A stretch of DNA of 64,000 nt. It comes from an uncultured Faecalibacterium sp. (GTDB taxonomy: Bacteria > Bacillota > Clostridia > Oscillospirales > Ruminococcaceae). Below the pieces are notes generated by a model that did not search any database, had not been told where the DNA came from, and saw only the letters and a list, made by a program, of their open reading frames with translations. Made by a program: the position numbers and the translations under genes. The stretch spans positions 9,297-73,296 of the forward strand of contig CABQER010000003.1 of NCBI GenBank assembly GCA_902463235.1, read 5' to 3'. Below, one piece after another: positions 49,791-64,000 of the stretch (position 1 is the stretch's first letter; each line of letters begins with the position of its first letter).

Positions 49791-51452
<1,662 letters not shown>

Positions 51453-52015: not shown

Positions 52016-53716
52016 GTGAAATCAATGAATGCTGACTATGTTGAAAATATCATTCGAAATATTGATGAGAAGTTTTATACCTATAAGTGCATCTTGGTTG
52101 ATGGTACTTGGGGCATTGGAAAGTCCTATATGGTAAGAAAAGCATTAGAGGACAAGAAAGATAAGGCTTTTTATGTATCGCTGTTTGGGCTGGAAAGTGC
52201 TCAGCAAATATATCATGATATTTTATATCAACTGCTTCTTCATACAGAGAATGGTGGAAAATTAGTTGAGTGGTGTAAGGATATAACTAAGATTTTTGGA
52301 AATTTCAATGAAAAGATAAAAAATATAAATACTATTTTGGAAAGTCATTTTTCAGAACGGGATTTGCTGAAAACGATAATCCAAAAATTTGAAGGACATT
52401 GTATTATTGTGGTTGATGATTTAGAAAGGCATAAAAAAGGAGTGAACTTTGAGGAAGCTTTGGGAATAATTGAAAACCTGAAGCAATTTGAACAAGTTAA
52501 AATCATTCTTATTGCGCATTCTGGAGAAATTCGTAGTGAGGATAAAGATATTTATGACAAATTCAAAGAAAAGGTAATAGATAGAATATTTGAGGTGACG
52601 GAACATTCAAATTCTATCAAGTGGGATAGAATGGGAAAGCAGGAATTTATTGCGAATTTCTTGTCTCAGCATAATGTGAAAAATTTGCGAACATTACAAA
52701 AAGCAAGATGTTTTTTTAATGATGTGGAACGGTGCTGCTTGGAGATTAAGGACGAGAAATTTATCGATGAAATACGGCAGATATGTTTTGCGGTAGTAGT
52801 TGAAGATACGGATAAGCTTTATTATAGAGAGCTTCCTGAATTTTCAGAACAGGATGCCTCAAATCCTCAAAAGCGAGTGACGAGGATTTTGGCAGAAAGT
52901 GAAAATAAGATAGAATCAAGGCTGGGACAGTATACTAAAAAATTGAAGTCGGGAGAGGCATTGGTAAAATGTATTTACAAATATTATAAAAATGAAAAGA
53001 TATTGACGAAAGAGGAGATGGAAATACATTACAAAATATATCGAAAAGCGGGAGACATACCTAATAATTATAAGTCTGAAAAAGAAATGAGACAATATAT
53101 TAGCGTGTGGAAAACTGAATTTGATGAGGCAAAGGGGAGCACTGAATTAACTTTTTTGGCGGGAGAATATGATCGATGGTATCAGGTTTTAGGGGAGGAT
53201 GACAAAGAGCTGATAGAAACCTATGAAAAAAAGCTTGAGAAGTTCTTTGTTGACGAAGCAAAGAAAATAATGCCCAATCCTTTGGATCACTATAGTGGAG
53301 GTAAATTTGACAATGCCACACAAACGGTAAGAGAAATATATAATGAAGTGCTCAAAAGAGCAAAATGCAGATTGGTGCAGGATTATATAGAGTATCTTTG
53401 TGAAAAGACAAATGACGAGACAGCTTGGAAATATTCAGGACAGCTTAGGGACTGGTATACAGATAGCACGGATATAGGAAAGTATATTGAAGATAATCTG
53501 GAAAGGCTTTTTACTGAAAAATCGTTCCCTGTATTTGGTATGAATGATTGTAAATATTATACCTGCTGCAACATTATTAAGATGCTGTATCAGAAAGATA
53601 GTGAGCATTTTGTTGAACGGTATAAAGAGCTGAAAACAAGTTTTGACCGCATGAGCATTTACCGAACGGAGATGATTCTCAGAGAACTCGAAATCCTAAA
53701 TCAAATCAATAAATAA
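52016..53716 (+). CDS. KAP-family P-loop NTPase
   Basis: GTWGIGKS Walker A, YVSLFG, IIVVDDLER Walker B, FKEKVID, NLRTL; AT-rich. Start may be ATG 52025. Confidence 0.85.
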   Translation: MKSMNADYVENIIRNIDEKFYTYKCILVDGTWGIGKSYMVRKALEDKKDKAFYVSLFGLESAQQIYHDILYQLLLHTENGGKLVEWCKDITKIFGNFNEKIKNINTILESHFSERDLLKTIIQKFEGHCIIVVDDLERHKKGVNFEEALGIIENLKQFEQVKIILIAHSGEIRSEDKDIYDKFKEKVIDRIFEVTEHSNSIKWDRMGKQEFIANFLSQHNVKNLRTLQKARCFFNDVERCCLEIKDEKFIDEIRQICFAVVVEDTDKLYYRELPEFSEQDASNPQKRVTRILAESENKIESRLGQYTKKLKSGEALVKCIYKYYKNEKILTKEEMEIHYKIYRKAGDIPNNYKSEKEMRQYISVWKTEFDEAKGSTELTFLAGEYDRWYQVLGEDDKELIETYEKKLEKFFVDEAKKIMPNPLDHYSGGKFDNATQTVREIYNEVLKRAKCRLVQDYIEYLCEKTNDETAWKYSGQLRDWYTDSTDIGKYIEDNLERLFTEKSFPVFGMNDCKYYTCCNIIKMLYQKDSEHFVERYKELKTSFDRMSIYRTEMILRELEILNQINK

Positions 53717-53719
53717 GAC

Positions 53720-53765
53720 AAGCCGCCCAGCGACCTTACGGTCTCGCTGGGCGGCTTATTTTTTG
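53720..53765. terminator. Terminator between convergent KAP NTPase and XRE genes
   Basis: AAGCCGCCCAGCGA...TCGCTGGGCGGCTT followed by a T tract. Confidence 0.75.
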
Positions 53766-54058
53766 CGTTTCCACAACAGATATTCTTCGTAGCGGTGCAT
53801 CTCGTTCTGTTCTTCTTCGGTCAGGCGCTGGCGCTGTTTGCGGGCTTCGTCCGAGGGGTCGATGTCGGTCAGACCCAGTAGGTAGTCGGCAGAGGTGCCA
53901 TAACGCTTGCAGAGTGCAATCAAAACTTCATGGCTGGGAGATGCTTTGTCGCGTTCCCATGTGCGGACGGTAGGCACTGAAACATGAAATGCTTTTGCTA
54001 AATCTTCTTGCGTTTCACCGTTTAATTTGCGTAATTCCGCGAGCCGTTCGCCAATCAT
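53756..54058 (-). CDS. XRE/Cro-family HTH regulator
   Basis: IGERLAELRK...TQEDLAKAFHVSVPTVRTWERDKASP...SADYLLG. Confidence 0.92.
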   Translation of the reverse strand: MIGERLAELRKLNGETQEDLAKAFHVSVPTVRTWERDKASPSHEVLIALCKRYGTSADYLLGLTDIDPSDEARKQRQRLTEEEQNEMHRYEEYLLWKRKK

Positions 54059-54235
54059 CCTAATCCCTGCCTTTCTTTGCTATCAGTATAAATAATATTG
54101 TCGCTTTTGACAAAAACCGATAATCCCGTTGTCAGTTTTGCTTAAAAGTGATAATATTATTATCATAATAGTGCGAAAGTGATAAGAATACTGACACTTC
54201 CGCCACAACGCTAAGGCAAAGCGAGGGAATCCCCG

Positions 54236-56251
54236 TTGGAACAACTGATCGACTTTCACGCACCGGAAGTACAGGCGGTGCTGGATACGCTACTAAAAGA
54301 TAAATCCACCGGTAAAAACATCATCTGGGCAACCGACCCGCCGGAAGAACTGCAAACGGTAATGTACGAACCGGTGACGGATAAATCCCAGATCACTGCG
54401 CAGCAGCTCTGGCTGACCCACTACGAGGTGGTGCTGCCCCGGATGATGAAGCAGACCGACACCCAGCAGCAGCGCACCCGCAAAAAAGGCGAGGTGTTCA
54501 GCCCTGCATGGGTCTGCAACAAGATGAACAACGCACTGGACGCCGACTGGTTCCGTGCGCTGGGGGCAGAGGAGAGCGCCGGGCAGTTCACGGTGGAGCT
54601 GCCCCAAGGCTGGCAGACGGTGGAAACGCCGGTGCAGTTCCCAGCGTGCAAGGGCAGGACCACGGCATGGGTGCAGTATGTGCAGAGCCGCCGTTTGGAG
54701 GTGACCTGCGGCGAAGCCCCCTTTCTGGCATCCCGGTACGATGCCGCCACCGGCGAGATGATCCCGGTAGCCCGGCGCATTGGTATTCTGGACCGCAAGC
54801 TGCGTGTGGTAAGCGAGAACGCCGCCACAGAGGACGAGTGGCGCAAATATGCCACCCATGCAGTGCAGTCCACCTACGGCTATGAGTATCAGGGAGATAA
54901 TCTTTTGTTGGCGCGGGTCAACCTGCTGCTGACCTATGCAGAGCATCTGCAAGCCTGCTGGCAGCGCAAACCCACAAAAGAAGAGTTACAGCCTATCGCC
55001 ACCATCATCAGCTGGAACCTGTGGCAGATGGACGGCCTGCGCCTGTCCGTGCCCGGCGGCAAGCCCCAGCCGGAGGCAGAACAGCTTGACCTCTTTTCCA
55101 TGTTCGGGGCGGCAGAGCCGCAGCCGCCCACGGTATCCTGTAAAGTGAAAAACTGGCGCAAGGGCAGCCATGGAACCGCCCAGAACTTTGAAACCATTCA
55201 GGAAGGGAGTACCAGCATGAAGTTTGATTATGTCATCGGAAACCCGCCGTATCAGGATGAAACCCTTGGCGATAATGGAACGTTTGCACCGCCAGTATAT
55301 AACAAGTTTCTGGATGCGTCTTATGAGATAGCAGAAAAAGTAGAGATGATTCATCCGGCACGCTTTCTGTTCAATGCTGGTTCTACGCCGAAAGCATGGA
55401 ATGAAAAAATGCTGAATGACGACCATCTCAAAATTCTTTATTATGAAGCTGATAGTAGCAAAATGTTTGTGAACACAGACATTAAAGGCGGTATTGTGGT
55501 TTCGTATCGCAATATGTTAGAGCAATATGGTGCAATAGGAACATTTACACCCTATGAAGAATTAAATAGGATTCTTTGCAAAGTCAAGCCTGCAATAAAA
55601 GTACCATTGAGCACCATGATTTCAGGCAGAGGTGTATATAAACTATCCGCTGCGGCTTTGGAAGAACACTCGGAAATTGAAAGGATTCAATCAAAAGGCC
55701 ATAAATACGATGTGGGGTCGGGTGCTTTTAAAATTCTGAAAGACATTGTGTTTTTTGAAGAAAAGCCCGTAGATACTAACGAATATGTTGCATTTCTCGG
55801 ACTTGTAAATTTGAAAAGAGTGTATTATTGGACAAAGTTGAAGTATCAAAACCCACCCAAAAGCTTTGCGGAATATAAAGTGTTCATTCCTCAGGCAAGT
55901 GGAAGCGGAGCACTGGGCGAAGTAATGTCAAGCCCGCTTGTTGAAGCTCCCTTTGTTGGAGCAACTGAAACATTCCTTTCAATTGGTGGCTTTGAAACTC
56001 GAAGCGAAGCGGAAAACTGTCTGGCTTACATAAAGACTAAATTCGTGCGAGCAATGCTTGGAGTGTTGAAGATTACGCAAGCAAATACCCGAGAAAAATG
56101 GAAATACGTTCCCCTTCAGGACTTTACCGCCCATTCCGACATTGATTGGAGCAAGTCGGTGGCGGAAATTGACCAGCAGCTTTACCGCAAGTATGACCTG
56201 ACTGCGGACGAAATCGAATTTATCGAGACCCATGTAAAGGAGATGGCATAA
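54236..56251 (+). CDS. Amino-methyltransferase (Eco57I-like, NPPY) with C-terminal specificity region
   Basis: KKGEVFSP, RLEVTCGEAPFL (motif I-like), YGYEYQGDNL, FDYVIGNPPY (motif IV), MIHPARF, WKYVPLQDF; TTG start after GAGGG. Confidence 0.88.
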   Translation: MEQLIDFHAPEVQAVLDTLLKDKSTGKNIIWATDPPEELQTVMYEPVTDKSQITAQQLWLTHYEVVLPRMMKQTDTQQQRTRKKGEVFSPAWVCNKMNNALDADWFRALGAEESAGQFTVELPQGWQTVETPVQFPACKGRTTAWVQYVQSRRLEVTCGEAPFLASRYDAATGEMIPVARRIGILDRKLRVVSENAATEDEWRKYATHAVQSTYGYEYQGDNLLLARVNLLLTYAEHLQACWQRKPTKEELQPIATIISWNLWQMDGLRLSVPGGKPQPEAEQLDLFSMFGAAEPQPPTVSCKVKNWRKGSHGTAQNFETIQEGSTSMKFDYVIGNPPYQDETLGDNGTFAPPVYNKFLDASYEIAEKVEMIHPARFLFNAGSTPKAWNEKMLNDDHLKILYYEADSSKMFVNTDIKGGIVVSYRNMLEQYGAIGTFTPYEELNRILCKVKPAIKVPLSTMISGRGVYKLSAAALEEHSEIERIQSKGHKYDVGSGAFKILKDIVFFEEKPVDTNEYVAFLGLVNLKRVYYWTKLKYQNPPKSFAEYKVFIPQASGSGALGEVMSSPLVEAPFVGATETFLSIGGFETRSEAENCLAYIKTKFVRAMLGVLKITQANTREKWKYVPLQDFTAHSDIDWSKSVAEIDQQLYRKYDLTADEIEFIETHVKEMA

Positions 56252-59200
56252 TGGCTGGCATAACCCTGCGCACTGCCCGGCAGGTAGTGCCCATGATCTA
56301 CGCCTATACCACCCCGGAAATTGCCCGGCACAACGGCTGGACGAAGATCGGCTACACCGAGCAGTCGGTGGACAAACGTCTGAAACAGCAGACTCACACC
56401 GCCGATGTGCTGTTCCACGAGGAGTGGCGGGGCAATGCCGTCTACGATGACGGCAGCGGCGAGGTGTTCACCGACCACGATTTCCACGCCTACCTCCGTA
56501 AGCTGAACGTGGAGAATGACCGCAAAAACGAGTGGTTCCATCTGGATGGGCAGCAGTCCCGGCGGTATTTTCAGGATTTCCGCATGAACCGGGGCCGGGT
56601 GCAGCTGGATGCCGCCATCGCCTACACCCTGAGGGAGGAACAGGCAAGGGCTGTCCGCGACACTAAAACCTATTACTGGAGCCACCCCGGCGGAGAATAT
56701 CTCTGGAATGCCAAGCCCCGCTTTGGCAAGACTCTCTCCGTCTACGATTTCTGCAAGCAGGTCGATGCACAGACGGTGCTTATCGTCACCAACCGCCCTG
56801 CCATTGCCAATAGCTGGTACAGCGATTATGTGCGCTTTCTGGGCAGAGAGTCCGGCTATCTCTTCGTCAGTCATGTGGATGCCCTTGCCGGGCTGCCCCA
56901 TGTGCTGGACGAGCAGGGCTATCTGGACGCCGCCGCACAGGGCGAGGAGCTGTATAAGCGCATTGAGTTCGTCAGCCTGCAGGATATGAAAGGCTCGAAA
57001 TATTTCGGCGGCGAGTACGACAAGCTGCGCCACCTGACCGAGCTGAACTGGGATGTGCTGGTCATCGACGAAGCCCACGAGGGCGTGGACACCTACAAGA
57101 CCGACCTTGCCTTTGACCGCATCCACCGCCGCTTCACGCTGCACCTGTCCGGCACGCCCTTCAAAGCGCTGGCGAACGATAAGTTTGCCGGGAATGCCAT
57201 CTTCAACTGGACCTACGCCGACGAGCAGGCAGCCAAGCGGAGCTGGCAGGGCGCACCGGGGCAGCAGAACCCCTACGCAAACCTCCCCATGCTCAACCTC
57301 TACACCTACCAGATGTCCGAGATCATCCGGGACGAAATTCAGCAGGGCGTGGAGATCGACGGCGAAACGCAGGAATTTGCCTTTGACCTGAACGAGTTTT
57401 TCAAGGTAAAGCCCAGCGGCAGCTTTGAACACGACGCCGAGGTAGACCGCTTTCTGGATGCCATGACCACCCAGAACAAGTTTCCGTTTTCCACCCCGGA
57501 GCTGCGGGCCGAACTGAAGCACACCTTCTGGCTGCTGAACAGGGTGGACAGCGCCAGAGCGCTGGCAAAAAAGCTGCAGGCGCACCCGGTGTTCCGGGAC
57601 TATGAGGTGATCCTTGCCGCCGGTGACGGCAAGCTGGACGACACGGACGAGAACCAGAAGAGCTTTGACCGGGTAAAAGCCGCCATCGCCCACCACGAAA
57701 AGACCATCACCCTGTCGGTGGGGCAGCTCACCACCGGTGTCACCATCCCGGAATGGTCGGCGGTGCTGATGCTCTCCAACCTGAAAAGCCCGGCGCTGTA
57801 TATGCAGGCGGCGTTCCGTGCCCAGAACCCCTGCCTTTTCCACGAAAACGGCACCTTCCGCCGCAAAGAGAACGCCTATGTGTTCGATTTTGACCCTGCC
57901 CGCACTCTGCTGATCTATGAGCAGTTCGCCAACGACCTTTCTCAGAACACCGCCAGCGGCAAGGGCGACACCGAGGAGCGCAAGGCGCACATCCAGACCC
58001 TGCTCAATTTCTTCCCGGTCATCGGCGAGGACGAGGAAGGGGAGATGATCCCGCTGGATGCAGAAAAAGTCCTCAGCATCCCCCGGAAGATCAAGTCCAA
58101 AGAAGTGGTGCGGATGGGCTTCCAGAGCAATTTCCTGTTCCAGAACATTTCCAACGTGTTCAGTGCGCCGCAGGAGGTGCTGGACATTCTGCAAAACTTC
58201 CAGCCCATCAGCGAAGCCAAGGCAAAGCCCATTCAGATCACCCCGGACACCGGCGCAGACCTTTCCCTGAACGACAAGGGCGAGGTGGATCTGGACGAGG
58301 GCTACGTCATCGGCAAGGCAGCGGATGTGTTCGGGGAAAAAATTTATGAGAGCATCCCGGCGCTGGACACCGCCTTGCAAGACCTGACCGATGCCCCGGC
58401 GAAAGAGGAGCATCTGGAGCCCCTGAAAAAGAGCATCACCAAGGAGATCATCACCCCCATGGTGGAGCAGGCAAAGCAGGAGTATGGGCGGGACCTGAAG
58501 CTGTCCGACCAGAAGCGGTTCGAGAGCGCCGCCAAAGCCAAGATGGACGTGGCGGTGAACAAGGTGGTGGACAACTACCGCATCGACCAGAGCCAGTTGG
58601 AGACCCAGCGCACCCAGCAGCTGCAAAGCTGCACCACCGCCCAGCAGCGCCAGCAGGTGAACCGGGAGTTTGACGCAAAGCAGCAGCAGAGCACCGCCGC
58701 CCTCATGGAGACGTTGCAAACCACCATCCAGCAGACGGCGCAGGAAATGCAGCAGACCATCGTGCGCACCGTGGAGACCAACCAGAAGGAGCAGGAGAAA
58801 AAGGGCTACGAGGACACCGTCCGTGACCACCTCCGGGGCTTTTCCCGCACCATCCCGTCCTTCCTCATGGCCTACGGCGACGAGACCGTGACGCTGGCAA
58901 ATTTTGACCAGATCATCCCGGACAAGGTCTTTCAGGAGGTCACCAGCATCACGCTGGAACAGTTCCGCTTTTTGCGGGACGGCGGGCCGTACATCAACCA
59001 AGCCACCGGACAGGAGGAGCACTTTGCAGGCCATCTGTTCGACCCGGTGGTGTTTGACGATTCGGTGAAGGAGTTCTTGAACCTGAAGGTCAAGCTGGCG
59101 GATTACTTCGACGAGAGCCGCACCGAGGATATCTTCGACTACATCCCACCTCAGAAAACCAACCAGATCTTCACTCCCAAGTGGGTGGTGAAAAAGATGG

Positions 59201-59553
59201 TGGACTTGCTGGAGCAGGAAAACCCCGGCTGCTTCGATGACCCCGGCAAGACCTTTCTCGACCCCTACATGAAGTCCGGTCTGTATATTACCGAGATCGT
59301 CAAGCGGCTCTACCGCAGCGAGAAAATGCGGCAAACCTTCCCGGATGATAACGCCCGGCTGGAACATATCTTTGCCAAGCAGGTCTATGGGCTTGCGCCG
59401 ACCGAGATCATCTACCGCATTGCTATCAGCTACATTCTGGGCTTTGCAAAGGGTCACGGCATCACCGCCCACCATATCCGTCAGGCGGATACGCTGGAAT
59501 TTGCCAAGGCGGGCACCATGGAAAGGGAACTGGATAAGATTTTCAGAGACTGA
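56251..59553 (+). CDS. GIY-YIG-like nuclease + SF2 (DEAH) helicase + C-terminal partial methyltransferase
   Basis: IYAY...KIGYT...RLKQQ...NEWF; AKPRFGKT, IDEAH, SGTP, QAAFRAQNP; Gln-rich coiled coil; QIFTP...FLDPYMKSGLY...VYG with no NPPY; TAATG coupling to the MTase gene. Confidence 0.88.
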   Translation: MAGITLRTARQVVPMIYAYTTPEIARHNGWTKIGYTEQSVDKRLKQQTHTADVLFHEEWRGNAVYDDGSGEVFTDHDFHAYLRKLNVENDRKNEWFHLDGQQSRRYFQDFRMNRGRVQLDAAIAYTLREEQARAVRDTKTYYWSHPGGEYLWNAKPRFGKTLSVYDFCKQVDAQTVLIVTNRPAIANSWYSDYVRFLGRESGYLFVSHVDALAGLPHVLDEQGYLDAAAQGEELYKRIEFVSLQDMKGSKYFGGEYDKLRHLTELNWDVLVIDEAHEGVDTYKTDLAFDRIHRRFTLHLSGTPFKALANDKFAGNAIFNWTYADEQAAKRSWQGAPGQQNPYANLPMLNLYTYQMSEIIRDEIQQGVEIDGETQEFAFDLNEFFKVKPSGSFEHDAEVDRFLDAMTTQNKFPFSTPELRAELKHTFWLLNRVDSARALAKKLQAHPVFRDYEVILAAGDGKLDDTDENQKSFDRVKAAIAHHEKTITLSVGQLTTGVTIPEWSAVLMLSNLKSPALYMQAAFRAQNPCLFHENGTFRRKENAYVFDFDPARTLLIYEQFANDLSQNTASGKGDTEERKAHIQTLLNFFPVIGEDEEGEMIPLDAEKVLSIPRKIKSKEVVRMGFQSNFLFQNISNVFSAPQEVLDILQNFQPISEAKAKPIQITPDTGADLSLNDKGEVDLDEGYVIGKAADVFGEKIYESIPALDTALQDLTDAPAKEEHLEPLKKSITKEIITPMVEQAKQEYGRDLKLSDQKRFESAAKAKMDVAVNKVVDNYRIDQSQLETQRTQQLQSCTTAQQRQQVNREFDAKQQQSTAALMETLQTTIQQTAQEMQQTIVRTVETNQKEQEKKGYEDTVRDHLRGFSRTIPSFLMAYGDETVTLANFDQIIPDKVFQEVTSITLEQFRFLRDGGPYINQATGQEEHFAGHLFDPVVFDDSVKEFLNLKVKLADYFDESRTEDIFDYIPPQKTNQIFTPKWVVKKMVDLLEQENPGCFDDPGKTFLDPYMKSGLYITEIVKRLYRSEKMRQTFPDDNARLEHIFAKQVYGLAPTEIIYRIAISYILGFAKGHGITAHHIRQADTLEFAKAGTMERELDKIFRD

Positions 59554-59576
59554 GAAATAGAATACGGCATAAAACC

Positions 59577-59616
59577 AAAGGCGGCTGTCTGCATGGGTGC
59601 AGATGGCCGCCTTTTT
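59577..59616. terminator. Terminator between convergent helicase and DUF262 genes
   Basis: AAAGGCGGCTGTCTGCA-TGGG-TGCAGATGGCCGCCTTTTT. Confidence 0.75.
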
Positions 59617-59628
59617 GTGCTATGCCTG

Positions 59629-61485
59629 TTACAAAAATGAAAGCTGTTGAACGTCCGGCAAATCGTTTTCAGGTGTGGAATGATTGGCTTTTTTCATCAT
59701 GTTTCCAATGGTTTTTTTGATGGTGGACTTGGTTTCGATCCCTTGCTTGCGCATCTTTGTATCATTGGTGTTTTTTTGAACCGAGCAGATACTGGATTTC
59801 AAGATACGATTGTAGAAGTCCATTGCCATGATATTCGTCCGCTCATTTATATCAATCGTGGACTTTCCAGCATATCGCTGAGCGATATTCCGTGCGGTAT
59901 GAAACATTGATGTTTCATAAATTTTAAGTTTGCTGGCGAAATCTTTTCCATTGCACCGTGAATTTAGGCTGTCTTCAAGAGGAATCAAATTCCCAATAAT
60001 GCCATTTTCAGGGGAATTTGTATCATCCAAGATATGTTCGATCGTGAAGGCAGCACACTGCTTACTGGCACATTTGTATCGTTCAAGGACTTCCAAAACA
60101 ACTTGCACACGTTCCTTGTTTCGGTCATCGTCGTAATACCCAGCGTGATGTGACCACCCTAAATTGGAGAATGCTTTGAGAAAGACTTCTTTGCTGGGAA
60201 GTTTATTCTTTAACTCTGAGATAAAGCATTCCAATGCGGAGTCGGAGTAGTGGTTTTCGAGAATACTGGAATTTTTGTAAATCGCATTTGTTATTTTGTT
60301 CGAATTTTCTTGTCCAATAATGGTATAGCAGATGAAAAAATCATAGAGAAACAGAAGGGTCTCCTCGTACTTCTCTTGGCTGAGGTGACCGAGTTCATAT
60401 TGATGAATTAGACTTAAAAGGATAGGACGAATTTGTTCTTGCCGATGCTTTTTGAAAAAAGCATATACTTTAAATTCAACATTCGAACAGTTAGCAGATT
60501 CCTCAGATTGAGAAGGAGAAAGAAGGCGGTTGTAGTAGATGGACTTCTGATAAATATCGTCAAGAAGCGGAACAGTTGGAATGCCTTTGTTGGAATCACG
60601 AATGAGTTTATAATCGCTGATACCTTCCTGAACAGAGGTTCTATATTTGTGGGTTGCATAATGTTTTACAAAGCGTTCGATGTTGTTACCTAAAAGCGAT
60701 TCGATCTCCGACCAAGTGGTTTTCGCAGTGTCGACATCTCCATCGGGTCTAATGCCTCTTAGAATAAAGTTCTTTAATAGTTCATGCCCTTCCAATGCTG
60801 AGCCGCGAGCGTTTAAAATCTCAAAAATCGTGTACGCATCTTCCTCGGAAGATGCGGTAATATCAACGTATAGCAGATTGTCCGTGATGGCGGTTCGTAA
60901 ATTGAGTAGGACCTGAATTGGAGAAAGAGCAGATTCTTCAATATGTTTATAAATGCTGTTTATGAAAAACACAAAGGCAGCTGCGAGATTCTTGTTGTTT
61001 CGAGAATACTGCTTTACAAGTGCTACGGTTTCAAAACACTTTGCCATATTTGGAGAAATTGAAAAGAGCCCGGTAATAATTCGCTCCAGTGCAATATATT
61101 GCTCAGACTTGATGACCATAGTTTCCTGATTTAAATCATCACGAGTGAACAAATACTGCTTTGTTCCTCGAAATTCGTCGTCAAATTCATAGCAATGAAG
61201 GCAAAAGGCTACACTTGCAAGAAAAATTGTTAGGGAAATAATCCGTTGTTGACCATCTACAATTGTAAAATAGGAGATGCCGTTTTTGCGGTCGTTCTCT
61301 TTGTAAAGAACGATACTTCCGATGAAGTGGGTTGCTTCTTTTCCGGTAGCAACGAGCAAGACATCATCAAATAACTCTTGCCAGTTTCTTTTGTTCCATA
61401 CATACTGTCGCTGGTTTCGGGGTGTTCCATAACAACGCTTGGTGAAAAGGTCGTAGACGTGTTTGTCATCTGCTTCAAAACTCAA
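59629..61485 (-). CDS. DUF262 + DUF1524(HNH) GmrSD-like protein
   Basis: PRNQRQYVW, HFIGSIV, IVDGQQR, FEILNARG, TIEHIL...IGNLIPL...N; AT-rich; TTG start after GAGG. Confidence 0.87.
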   Translation of the reverse strand: MSFEADDKHVYDLFTKRCYGTPRNQRQYVWNKRNWQELFDDVLLVATGKEATHFIGSIVLYKENDRKNGISYFTIVDGQQRIISLTIFLASVAFCLHCYEFDDEFRGTKQYLFTRDDLNQETMVIKSEQYIALERIITGLFSISPNMAKCFETVALVKQYSRNNKNLAAAFVFFINSIYKHIEESALSPIQVLLNLRTAITDNLLYVDITASSEEDAYTIFEILNARGSALEGHELLKNFILRGIRPDGDVDTAKTTWSEIESLLGNNIERFVKHYATHKYRTSVQEGISDYKLIRDSNKGIPTVPLLDDIYQKSIYYNRLLSPSQSEESANCSNVEFKVYAFFKKHRQEQIRPILLSLIHQYELGHLSQEKYEETLLFLYDFFICYTIIGQENSNKITNAIYKNSSILENHYSDSALECFISELKNKLPSKEVFLKAFSNLGWSHHAGYYDDDRNKERVQVVLEVLERYKCASKQCAAFTIEHILDDTNSPENGIIGNLIPLEDSLNSRCNGKDFASKLKIYETSMFHTARNIAQRYAGKSTIDINERTNIMAMDFYNRILKSSICSVQKNTNDTKMRKQGIETKSTIKKTIGNMMKKANHSTPENDLPDVQQLSFL

Positions 61486-62030
61486 TGAAAGTCACCTCTT
61501 TTTCAGTGGATGGATTTGACCATTTGCTAATTAAGTTCATTTTAACCCATGAGAGCCAGAAAATCAACATTAACGCTATGATTTGGAAGTTGCGGTTTAC
61601 CGATGAAAAAACGGAATGGACTGAAAAGCTAATAATATAGAAAAACCAATACTGACTTCTACATAATCGCAAGCGACAGTTATGCGACAGTATGCTAGTG
61701 CAGGCTTCATCTAACGGATGCGGTTTACGGGTTTAGGTGTTCCCAATAAACATTCCGCAAAACGAAATGCCGTTTATATGCTGACGAATTGTTGGCTTAC
61801 GCTACGGAGACTCCTAGGGGACTTTCCAAATTTCAAAGCCATTTTGTAAACCAGACCGTCAGCTTTCAACTTTGACTTGAAACTGGCGGTTATTTCATAA
61901 CCTAGATGATTTTCGAGTTCACAACACCATATCAAACAGGATAGGCTACCTTGTTCTCTATCTTTTTGCCAAAGTTTTCAGCGTGTTTTCTTGCACACTG
62001 CCGAAAGTGGCGTGTTTTCAAAACTTTTTG

Positions 62031-62059
62031 TTGACATGGCTCGATTTTTGTGGTAATCT
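62031..62059 (+). promoter_or_regulatory. sigma70-type promoter with extended -10, pointing into the hairpin array
   Basis: TTGACA (62031)-17 nt-TAATCT (62054), with TG at 62051-62052. Confidence 0.65.
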
Positions 62060-62356
62060 ATCCCAACAATTTAATATAACATATTTACTTAGAGTTCCAG
62101 CTCGGCTCCCGAAGGAGTCGGAGCAAGTTTTTGACTTTCTTATCGCTACATAACGAATCCGAACCAAGGCCATCCCAGAAGGGACGGTCAGGTTCAGGTT
62201 GTTGTGTGGCGATTTTTTATTGCAAAATCAGCAACGAACCTTGAAAACCGCATGACCGTCTGCATGGAATACACGGCGATGACCCCGCAAGGGAGAGCCG
62301 GAAAACGCCGCCGGAAGGGGGCAGGAAAGCCATGCAGGGAGAACGGCGCACCCAAT

Positions 62357-63757
62357 ATCAACTTGTCAAAATGGCCAGTTGATGTGGTGAATGACACAAA
62401 GCGTCATTCACCAGAAAAACCTTATGCGTTACGGCTCACCTCATGTGGACAATTTGTCTACATGAGGTAACCTGTCGCAGCCTAATTCAATGTGTTCAAA
62501 CTGAGCACATTGACTCTGTCCGTGTTACAGCTGACCTCGACTTGACATTTTGTCAAGCCACGGTGAAATTCGGTAAGTGCTGCTTTTCAGTACTTACCAA
62601 ATGACCGTAACACGGTCGCTCTGTGGTGGGTTACGAAAACCGTAACTCACCACTTGGAAGTGGTAAATGGACAAAATGTCCACTTACCACTCAACCATAA
62701 CAGAGGAAGCTTGGTTGGTGGTCATTTTGATCACCAACCAGACAATCGTAACGCTTTACTGTGTAAAAGTGGCTGTTACCATTTTGATAACCGCCACGCA
62801 TCTGTAACGTTTGGGCAAATAATGCTTTTCATTATCCACCACACACCCGTAACAACCAAAGGAGGATTCCTATGACAACAGAACAATGGGAACGCGAAAA
62901 TCAGGACACCTTGATGGAATATTTCATTGATGGCGACCCCAGTGTGCGCAGAATCCAATGTGAATACTGCCGCAAGGTCATCTACACCCAGACCCGAAAC
63001 CGCAAATATTGCAGCTTCCAGACCTGCGGTCACAAGATGCTGAATCTGCGGAAAAGCCTTAAAAAGCGTGCCGACCGTGGAACTTACACCTGCGTCTGCT
63101 GCGGGGAACAGTTCCTACCAATTCGGGCAGATGCCAGATATTGCAACAATGCCTGCCGGCAGAAAGGCTACCGCCAGCGTAAAATAGCTGCACACACTTC
63201 TCTTTGAGGAACTTGATAAAGTTTGTCGAGTTCCTTATCTACGCTCGCTTTTATCCAGTAAAGTGGCACTTCCCAGAATGGGAAGTGCCAAAATACCGTA
63301 ACTCTTAATCGCTCACTCCCAAATCCCCAAAGTGGGAATTTGGGCTGTCATCTGAAATCAGGTTACGCTTTCCGTAACTTGATTTGTAACTCCTGCCGAA
63401 TCAAGTTCCCACTTTGGGAACTTGATTGTAGCCGTATCAAAATCAGGTTGTCAAAATGATAACTTGATTTCATCTGCAACGAAGCCACCGGAGTTATCAT
63501 TTTGAGAACTTCGGCTTTATCTGTTACGCGTCGCGCCCACTCCGTAAAAATCAGGTGGTCAAAATGATCACTTGATTCTACCCGTAACGACTCAAGGTCG
63601 TTGAAAATTAGGTGCCGCACCCGGCACTTGATTTTACCCGTAACAGAATCAGTGGGTCAAAATGGCCCGCTGAAAAAGCCGGACGAGCTGCGGGCAGGGA
63701 TTCGCAAATCTTTGCCTGTCAGCTTGCCAAAATCAACGGGCCAAAATGGCCCGTTGA
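62357..63757 (+). repeat. Array of about 23 heterogeneous hairpins/palindromes with 5-nt A/T-rich loops and interspersed GTAAC motifs
   Basis: Mostly 10-14 bp stems, e.g. AATCAAGTTCCC-ACTTT-GGGAACTTGATT (63399), TGGCACTTCCC-AGAAT-GGGAAGTGCCA (63264), TCAACGGGCC-AAAAT-GGCCCGTTGA (63733); 11 before and 12 after the 62872 ORF. Confidence 0.85.
62872..63207 (+). CDS. Small double zinc-finger protein embedded in the hairpin array
   Basis: GGAGG RBS; CEYC...KYCSFQTC and CVCC...RYCNNACRQKGYRQRK; basic. Confidence 0.8.
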   Translation: MTTEQWERENQDTLMEYFIDGDPSVRRIQCEYCRKVIYTQTRNRKYCSFQTCGHKMLNLRKSLKKRADRGTYTCVCCGEQFLPIRADARYCNNACRQKGYRQRKIAAHTSL

Positions 63758-63907
63758 AGGGAGTCAAGGGGGAACGCCTTACCCAGTGATATGATGCTGT
63801 GCGTCATATCCTACTGGGTATTATCTGGCGCACCGCAGGCGGCAGATTCAGCAGCAAAGCTGCTGCGCACCCACCCCGCCAAGCTGTTGAAATGGAGGAA
63901 TGTCTAT

Positions 63908-64000
63908 CTGAAATTAACACGACACAACGGACGAGCCGGGACCCACGGCACCTATAACCCCAAGCACAATGACCGGAGTTTCAACCTTGTCAACAGTGAG
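63908..64000 (+). CDS. Probable mobilization protein/relaxase (Pre/MobV-like), 5' part only
   Basis: After GGAGG (63894) the frame reads (C)TG-KLTRHNGRAGTHGTYNPKHNDRSFNLVNSE; HNDR recalls the MobV H-N-x-R motif; only 31 codons visible. Confidence 0.55.
   Translation, partial: MKLTRHNGRAGTHGTYNPKHNDRSFNLVNSE

Follow-up and report, generated by a model that had tools for sequence, protein, structure and literature searches.

Why does a small gene for a double zinc-ribbon protein lie within a dense array of hairpins, and does its product recognise them? We addressed this question for a stretch of 64,000 nucleotides from an uncultured Faecalibacterium sp. (positions 9297-73296 of contig CABQER010000003.1, from an assembly of 1.58 Mb that is 61% complete), referred to below as the window. 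The original prediction held that the product of the gene, here termed ZnF, is a cognate binding or processing protein of the array. Our analysis favours, with modest confidence, a ZnF that acts as a sequence-specific DNA-binding protein, the cognate sites being the GTAAC/GTTAC words and probably also the (G)GTCA-NNN-TGAC(C) hairpin tips of the flanking array. It is likely the DNA-binding partner of the array because distant relatives carry the same motif arrays beside the gene. The features at the centre of the argument are, in window positions:

62872..63207, plus strand: ZnF gene, 111 residues, ATG start; in the predicted fold, helices with WExxNQ at the N-terminus precede two zinc-ribbon (treble-clef-like) units, and a basic helix comes after each unit
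62860..62865, plus strand: ribosome-binding site AGGAGG, six bases before the ATG, read from the sequence
62357..62855, plus strand: hairpin/GTAAC array 1, with 10 hairpins and 10 GTAAC/GTTAC motifs, the last one at 62849, just before the ribosome-binding site
63207..63760, plus strand: hairpin/GTAAC array 2, with 11 hairpins and 7 GTAAC/GTTAC motifs

The open reading frame had been described with a GGAGG ribosome-binding site, 111 residues, two CxxC...YC...C units and a basic tail, all of which agrees with the list of open reading frames and with the sequence. Ribbon 1 reads C30-x2-C33...Y46-C47-x4-C52, and ribbon 2 reads C74-x2-C77...Y90-C91-x3-C95, followed by the basic tail CRQKGYRQRK. CGTAAC was likewise found immediately 5' of the ribosome-binding site (62848-62853), and the first base of the next hairpin, AGGAACTTGATAA-AGT-TTGTCGAGTTCCT at 63207-63235, is indeed the final base of the TGA codon that ends the frame. 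Homologues at E<=1e-3 accounted for 172 of 173 candidates in a protein collection clustered at 90%, several clusters having hundreds of members. An exhaustive HMMER search returned 1234 cluster representatives at E<=1e-3, 62 at E<=1e-10 and 15 at E<=1e-30. The eight cysteines and the N-terminal W-E-x-x-N-Q were all kept in homologues down to ~30% identity; ZnF is a real, conserved and so far uncharacterised gene. Multi-ribbon proteins with up to 7 repeats are also present in the protein library. Literature searches, judged by title or abstract, or by listings, returned no publication on the protein-array pair.

With a stem of at least 10 and at most 2 mismatches, 19 hairpins were counted in 62357-63733. 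The whole genome holds 733 (0.47 per kb), and the next densest 1.5-kb interval has 6. Looser settings gave 22 hairpins in 62357-63810, 10 before the ZnF gene and 12 after it; 15 of them close with CA…TG, and 15 have loops of 3 nucleotides, mostly AAA or TTT. GTAAC/GTTAC occurs 17 times in 62428-63644, none of them within the ZnF frame, where ~0.7 would be expected (genome rate, 0.57 per kb). Several units of array 2 have a common stem, AATCAGGT...ACTTGATT, with a conserved G.T pair. The array is non-random and represents the densest hairpin cluster of the genome. The idea that GTAAC serves as a Chi-like site was dropped because the motif is not over-represented genome-wide. As a side observation, the tips TTGTCA/TGACAA at 63425-63454 and 63631-63660 give the minus strand strong sigma-70-like promoter matches (TTGACA-18-TACAAT, with 11 of 12 positions); these could be fortuitous or could give rise to antisense transcripts.

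Close relatives of the locus, with 88-98% protein identity, come from Faecalibacterium genomes. Full flanks were available for 66 metagenome and viral loci. In 65 of them at least 8 hairpins and at least 6 motifs surround the ZnF gene, and the exception, L073, has lost most of the upstream part (compared loci carry numbers with the prefix L). Alignments of close loci revealed gain and loss of whole units with break points at CCGTAAC(A), stem pairing that is kept via changes on both arms, and hairpin loops that flip to their reverse complement (GAA/TTC, AAA/TTT, ACAAAGC/GCTTTGT). Such flipping means that no reader depends on the loop sequence of a single strand; what is conserved is the pairing of the stems, together with the motif. 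Conservation amounted to 0.93 in motif columns (n=54) compared with 0.84 in other linker columns (n=355). The varying unit number, the loop inversions, which show active template switching or recombination between the arms, and the restriction of the array to one place would also suit selfish or mutational palindromes (REP/MITE-like, or products of template switching) that are functionless and sit in a tolerant non-coding stretch. We consider this explanation very improbable. No further copies of the array were found anywhere else in the assembly, so the repeats are not dispersed, and stem pairing is preserved by compensatory changes. Moreover, the CA/TG tip occurs in 87 of 159 distinct hairpin variants from 17 loci compared with 268 of 3014 hairpins of the genome background, and the unit design recurs at 34-43% protein identity.

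This recurrence carries most weight for the DNA-binding reading. GTAAC/GTTAC units adjoin the gene in all five full-length lineages examined (the window type, the L013 type, L042, L129 and L130/131); flanking DNA and neighbour genes differ among the five, and the distant ones, at 32-43% identity, have unrelated backbones. The proposed two-part module of protein and array is thus supported by arrays beside the gene in divergent lineages, and the suggested check, whether homologues are consistently flanked by arrays, turned out positively in both the close and the full-length distant sets, so that the stated refuting outcome, homologues mostly lacking arrays, did not arise. L013-L016 (63% identity) have serine-recombinase or true Mob_Pre backbones, three GTTAC-hairpin-GTAAC units upstream and ACCGTAAC 31 nucleotides before the ATG. 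L042 belongs to another bacterial family (profile match E=1e-45; nearest to a ~35%-identical branch, P0149/P0159). Two GTTAC-N8-hairpin(GGTCA-NNN-TGACC tip)-N7-GTAAC units extend there from within the 3' end of the reading frame, with 4 motifs clustered in ~140 nucleotides, and a sigma-like gene follows. In L129 (39%), a serine recombinase, the ZnF homologue, the array and an actin-like ParM homologue follow each other in that order; the large serine recombinase directly 5' of the homologue (L129:679-2460) has two extra C-terminal YC..C ribbons. In L130/131 (34%), arrays flank the gene on both sides, and clpX adjoins.

Similar fields accompany shorter ribbon proteins. A 76-residue double-ribbon protein in L168 overlaps the stop codon of a D5-type primase-helicase gene and is followed by 15 CGTAACG/CGTTACG motifs in ~200 nucleotides, spaced by 8-13 nucleotides, and then by an AT-rich stretch. 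In the single-ribbon locus L152, 10 motifs lie close to the gene, and 4.2 kb elsewhere in the locus contain none. As controls, no GTAAC array was found at L044, L045 and L146 (double ribbons without the N-terminal helices), at L173 (ribbons fused to a LAGLIDADG nuclease) or at a crAss-phage protein (ribbons fused to an HNH motif); Cys_rich_VLP loci had no GTAAC motifs and only 0-3 hairpins, and 46 of 57 viral ribbon loci had at most 5 motifs near the match. The ribbon protein is the only gene common to the array-bearing loci, and in the lineages compared one motif copy always lies 14-31 nucleotides before the start codon. Residues after the last ribbon helix are V-T-D in 8 of 17 distant full-length homologues and V-T-N in one more, and the V-T-D codons of L042, L129 and L130 read GTTACnGA. 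As in iteron- or centromere-type systems, a short motif is clustered at the protein's own gene and kept across divergent homologues. Among all 5-mers, GTAAC ranked first in 4 of the 9 lineages. Poisson P values for its count in the nine were 4e-7, 5.5e-3, 0.1, 3.4e-3, 6.5e-4, 1e-9, 7.5e-7, 6.1e-3 and 1.4e-4, i.e., from 1e-9 to about 6e-3 in eight of them. The value of 0.1 belongs to L042, where 5 motifs over ~1.1 kb compare with 2.45 expected, which is not significant and counts against the DNA-binding reading.

Several further points weigh on the same side. The close homologues are not independent, and since the arrays touch the ZnF gene, part of the co-occurrence is simple linkage. L152, L174 and L186 were chosen after counts in 57 loci had been inspected. 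L174, with seven motifs in ~110 nucleotides after a ribbon lying between genes that look like small and large terminase subunits (read by eye from the sequence, no family search), fails correction for that choice. In the single-ribbon locus L186, the ribbon frame and its vicinity hold 10 motifs, 6 of them within the frame in ~80 nucleotides just 5' of the ribbon, but 9 more lie in the remaining 1.9 kb, so that the locus is enriched against base composition only. Many proteins with the YCSNACRQ signature have no array, and the signature does not predict the motif. The stems of 12-15 bp, variable yet complementary, would be superfluous for a duplex site and demand an explanation in terms of a folded strand. 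On the plus strand of the 159 unique hairpins, G.T mismatches outnumber A.C mismatches by 118 to 70, which fits folding of plus-strand RNA or single-stranded DNA. Finally, the assignment of the gene downstream of array 2 as a relaxase is weak, with a Pfam match below the cut-off, and so are the fold matches of the ZnF model (YacG, Z 4.2; FCS finger, Z 3.0; dsRNA-binding finger, Z 2.4).

That model was obtained with AlphaFold2 from a diverse alignment. Its mean predicted local distance difference test score (pLDDT) was 94.9, and its layout comprises two N-terminal helices and then, twice, a beta-hairpin zinc knuckle with a long basic helix. An earlier model from a shallow alignment was poor (pLDDT 67), and Foldseek on that model was uninformative. 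Structure prediction, as proposed in the original prediction, thus yielded a confident model and no significant fold match: Foldseek against pdb gave no match at E<=0.001 (best row a DUF1470/CGNR protein, E=0.24), and the best hit of a wide VIA-align search, YacG, was below the meaningful level. The protein falls outside the curated families: Pfam returned only sub-threshold zinc-finger matches to six families at E<=10, and searches of NCBIfam and of PDB sequences gave nothing above threshold. Membership of the CGNR zinc finger family (PF11706) was rejected at 16.4 bits versus a 24-bit gathering score (E=0.0078, residues 30-56 only), and the NinG/Rap junction endonuclease (PF05766) at E=0.74, the match covering only profile positions 8-40 of 193 with the N-terminal ribbon (phrog_171, E=0.99). 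In PHROGs, residues 4-103 match positions 159-246 of the 361 of phrog_1271 (HNH endonuclease) with E=1.4e-6, pointing to a shared double-ribbon module. An identity as HNH nuclease was dismissed: the 111 residues stop behind the helix of the second ribbon, and none of the nuclease families was matched. The processing role that had been suggested found no support. The plasmid collection gave no match to the protein; four records of the phage collection match it, all of them unannotated or "hypothetical protein".

What such a protein might do is suggested by the surroundings of the arrays, which comprise the following further features:

62031..62059, plus strand: predicted promoter, TTGACA (62031-62036), a 17-nucleotide spacer and TGg-TAATCT (62051-62059), read by eye
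62100..62219, plus strand: leader part A, two terminator-like hairpins (~62100-62124 and 62142-62212) with T runs after them
62236..62350, plus strand: leader part B, ~115 nucleotides, structured, with P1 (62256-62268 / 62331-62347), a variable P2 and a P3 hairpin
63780..63820, plus strand: long inverted repeat TACCCAGTGATATGATGC-TGT-GCGTCATATCCTACTGGGTA, putative oriT nick hairpin, positioned 5' of the relaxase-like gene
63791..64000, plus strand: 5' part of a Mob_Pre-like (MobV-type) relaxase-like gene, which continues to window-equivalent 65143

In order, the element carries the promoter-like site, leader A, leader B, array 1, ZnF, array 2, the inverted repeat, the Mob_Pre-like gene, the VapE gene and Xis/Int of the Tn916 type (integrase, PF02920 + PF00589). 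A 16-bp direct repeat, GGGCGGCATGTACTAA, at 51437-51452 and L018:7480-7495 (window-equivalent 68480-68495) bounds a unit of 17 kb inserted at the 3' end of groEL. This repeat-bounded unit with its Mob_Pre-like, VapE and Xis/Int genes is therefore an integrative mobilisable element, and its mobilisation/replication module begins with ZnF. The TTACGCCA(A) repeats just inside both ends look like integrase arm sites, and the same role was dropped for the GTAAC motifs. The cargo (52016-61485) encodes a KAP-family NTPase, an Eco57I-like methylase, a T5orf172/ResIII helicase-like protein (1100 residues) and a GmrSD-type nuclease; it is a defence-type set, and the GC content falls to 37-40% in parts of it. 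No partition NTPase was found in the element.

The Mob_Pre-like protein matches Pfam Mob_Pre with E=4.6e-4, and its HxDE..PHxH stretch aligns with the bona fide Mob_Pre of L016; a PDB sequence search gave no match. Its frame opens at 63791, so that ZnF is not, as had been claimed, the only convincing frame in 61500-63900. The only start candidates are a TTG (63887) and an ATG (63791, within the oriT-like repeat), and the start is uncertain; at 63884-63910, GGAGG is followed immediately by a 3-codon frame, ATG-TCT-ATC-TGA. The repeat at 63780-63820 is near-invariant in the nine aligned loci (of ten) with the Mob_Pre-like gene, and L009, which has no such gene, also lacks the repeat. An oriT role is proposed because the repeat lies upstream of the relaxase-like gene. 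The vapE frame is split into reading frames of 364 and 102 residues by a 13-bp tandem duplication (TGATCTATGCCTT twice, L018:5188-5213, window-equivalent 66188-66213), either a real inactivation or an assembly error; in L003 the frame is intact, with 449 residues. Between vapE and xis lies a second motif cluster (L018:5512-5694, window-equivalent 66512-66694) of eight GGTTAC/GTAACC, arranged as GGTTAC x4 (spacing 12, 12, 11), GTAACC x2, an AT-rich spacer and GGTTAC x2. It stops 8 nucleotides before the xis ribosome-binding site, has the same 5-mer core as the ZnF-flanking array and looks like a replication origin.

If ZnF is the DNA-binding partner of the array, the GTAAC words would be bound probably via the basic helices after each zinc knuckle, and the conserved palindrome tips perhaps as well. 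The protein would coat the array and build a multi-copy nucleoprotein complex beside the putative oriT and over its own translation start. This complex may mark or shape the transfer-origin region, just upstream of the putative oriT hairpin, and may help or gate the action of the relaxase/VapE machinery. ZnF may also feed back on the expression of its own operon, given that a motif is invariably found immediately before the ribosome-binding site, and the eight iterons 3' of vapE could be bound as well. Speculatively, the palindromic units would offer the same sites in duplex DNA and in the folded single-stranded DNA of rolling-circle transfer or replication.

The same surroundings could be read differently, with the array as a cis-acting DNA structure for other proteins, that is, oriT or single-strand-origin hairpins for the relaxase or iterons of a VapE origin, and ZnF as an unrelated small regulator. 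The array borders directly on the putative oriT hairpin and on the gene for the relaxase-like protein. GGTTAC iterons and an AT-rich spacer follow vapE as in satellite-type origins such as those of SaPIs, and HUH and relaxase enzymes read their sites as a hairpin and then a short conserved single-stranded word. Yet arrays persist without VapE or relaxase in the fetched flanks of L013 (serine recombinase), L042 (sigma-like), L129 (ParM-like) and L130 (clpX), bona fide Mob_Pre loci with Cys_rich_VLP genes lack such arrays, and the oriT-like repeat itself contains no GTAAC. We consider this explanation unlikely.

The region upstream of array 1 raises the question of whether the module operates on RNA. 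RNA folding of 62072-62352 gave -101.5 kcal/mol (z = -4.6). The position equivalent to the promoter reads TTGACG-17-TGgTATACT in L013; a consensus scan of the stretch did not list the site at 62031-62059. Leader A is 93-97% conserved in close loci, and its hairpins, which are kept in L013 with compensatory differences, could be an attenuator or a small RNA. Leader B has 83-86% identity even where the ZnF protein has 63%, with compensatory changes in 6 of 19 predicted pairs, and is present in 18 of 401 genomes of the family and 16 of 166 genera. Across loci it measures ~115-190 nucleotides, with a conserved core GCCGC...GGGGCAGGAA...GGAGAACGG and a covarying P1 (copies at L013:3585-3701, L022:1390-1554, L027, L036 and L039). 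It usually lies 30-90 nucleotides 5' of Cys_rich_VLP or zinc-ribbon genes and once before xis-int (L029). An Rfam scan of 61400-64000 at E<=10 gave five matches (E 1.4-9), all far below gathering scores and none for leader B. The element is a candidate for a new cis-regulatory RNA of clostridial mobile elements. In a deletion variant (L020:1280-1760 and L037; genome G276, same genus), leaders A and B, one hairpin, CCGTAAC and a ribosome-binding site remain; the ZnF gene is missing along with the arrays and the greater part of the relaxase-like gene, and the remainder is joined directly to the C-terminal 80 codons of that gene and vapE.

The conserved promoter-like site and the gene order suggest that ZnF is co-transcribed with the array. 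In three RNA runs, of which assembled contigs were searched, the array had no cover. Small contigs of a related element in one run cover 61956-62229 and extend into leader-B-like sequence; they are not evidence of transcription because DNA carry-over is possible. An RNA-level module would take 62060-63880 as one structured mRNA leader and intergenic RNA, with ZnF binding the RNA hairpins or GUAAC linkers and thereby controlling translation, stability or read-through of the mob operon, similar to conAn, lambda N-boxB or a CsrB-like multi-hairpin RNA. The promoter-like site, the two terminator-like hairpins and the covarying leader B lie upstream on the same strand, and the P2 domain of leader B in other genera holds one or two hairpins with the same CA-NNN-TG tip. 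The excess of G.T over A.C, the conserved G.T pair recurring in array-2 stems and the invariable motif copy before the start codon point in the same direction. The succession of leader, small gene, structured intergenic region and long operon is also the layout of conAn of pLS20 (PMC8191782). On the other hand, GUAAC and GUUAC are different RNA words, and both orientations occur in every lineage; the loops flip among close relatives; in L168 and L152 the dense arrays come after the gene, spaced by helical turns and flanked by AT-rich DNA like an origin; and the ZnF protein has no match to ConAn1 (PF17362) at E<=10. The RNA-level explanation therefore appears improbable to us.

For the preferred reading, in which ZnF binds DNA, the form of the ligand matters. 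Motif spacing approximates one helical turn (L168, 8-13 bp; vapE-proximal iterons, 11-12 bp), and together with the occurrence of GTAAC and GTTAC in every lineage this argues for duplex DNA rather than RNA. Ribbons of the ZnF type also occur joined to HNH and LAGLIDADG nucleases; in such homing-type enzymes they make up the part without catalytic activity. GTTAC and GTAAC converge around the hairpin in the archetypal unit (L013, L042, L129), so that a strand, once folded, would re-form a single duplex GTAAC site where the stem begins. The G.T bias is absent in the L013-16 set. Duplex DNA would thus be the likeliest ligand, folded single-stranded DNA a possible second form and RNA a minority alternative.

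Small DNA-binding proteins whose genes are flanked by arrays of their own sites are well known. ParR-parC of R1, TubR-tubC and the Omega heptad arrays combine direct and inverted repeats with autoregulation, ribbon-helix-helix or helix-turn-helix folds and contiguous repeats, and the L129 array lies exactly upstream of an actin-like ParM homologue. Unlike these systems, ZnF is predicted to fold as zinc ribbons, its motifs are separated by long variable hairpins, and the element here has no partition NTPase. Relaxosome accessory proteins (TraM with the sbm sites of F, TraY, MobC, NikA) are likewise products of small genes that neighbour oriT and the gene for the relaxase; multiple binding sites surround these genes, and they are autoregulated, which would also be expected for ZnF. 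No sequence or fold similarity to them was found. ZnF homologues are also neighbours of genes for primase-helicase, ParM-like and terminase proteins, so that the family is not restricted to conjugation. In phage-satellite or primase-helicase origins, the helicase or Rep protein itself reads the iterons. The order in L168 (D5 primase-helicase, ribbon protein, CGTAAC iteron field, AT-rich stretch) resembles such origins, as does vapE of this element with its 4+2+2 GGTTAC/GTAACC around an AT-rich spacer. In contrast to them, the candidate reader here would be a separate protein, and the main array lies 3 kb away around its gene.

An integron attC array was rejected. Integrons need an IntI-type integrase, whereas the integrase here is of the Tn916 type, and CCGTAAC/GTTACGG departs from the attC core sites RYYYAAC / GTTRRRY at two positions, with only GTT/AAC shared. 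A type III toxin-antitoxin locus (ToxIN-like) was also rejected: neither the sequence nor the length of the units is uniform, no family of direct repeats exceeds 4 copies (65-84% identity), and the protein matched no nuclease family in Pfam (no search with the defence-system library PADLOC was made). Cys_rich_VLP genes (PF14194) of clostridial mobilisable elements occupy the same position as ZnF, after leader B and before RepA_N/Mob_Pre genes, and their products have in common with ZnF a C-terminal CxxCGxxF...YCxxC ribbon; instead of the Cys_rich_VLP domain, ZnF has a second ribbon and the WExxNQ helices, and it did not match the family at E<=10, whereas the L022 protein in the same gene position did (E=1.2e-27). 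The layout of the locus is also similar to conAn of pLS20-type plasmids and canT of Tn916, both from Gram-positive mobile elements, which have a long leader, a small first gene, a long structured intergenic region and a transfer operon (PMC8191782, PMC11658703). The ConAn1 processivity factor is assigned in PMC8191782 to Pfam PF17362 (pXO2-34), which is not among the six families that ZnF matches at E<=10. Unlike the single complex RNAs of conAn2 and canT, the locus here has hairpin and motif arrays with the motif in both orientations. By analogy, the ZnF module would work like iteron- or centromere-binding pairs and oriT accessory proteins while standing outside those families.

A wider proposal is that an unnamed, widespread zinc-ribbon family reads (C)GTAAC as the subunit that specifies sites for DNA machines of quite different kinds (relaxase, VapE/D5 helicase, ParM-like partition, terminase), with palindromic sites readable in duplex and folded single-stranded DNA, and that Faecalibacterium elements have amplified the unit to >20 copies. 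We put this forward tentatively and regard it as rather doubtful in its full breadth. Leader B would be a separate candidate regulatory RNA of clostridial mobile elements. The unit of hairpin and motif would provide a simple system for one site that works in both double- and single-stranded DNA, and protein and site may give a compact pair on which to build genetic tools for Faecalibacterium, where few exist. If ZnF reads GTAAC, gene-adjacent motif arrays would mark oriT, ori, centromere or pac in Clostridia, where such cis-acting sites are difficult to locate. Many "hypothetical" small zinc-ribbon genes of gut-bacterial mobile elements and phages would then gain a testable function, the family numbering 1234 cluster representatives at E<=1e-3.

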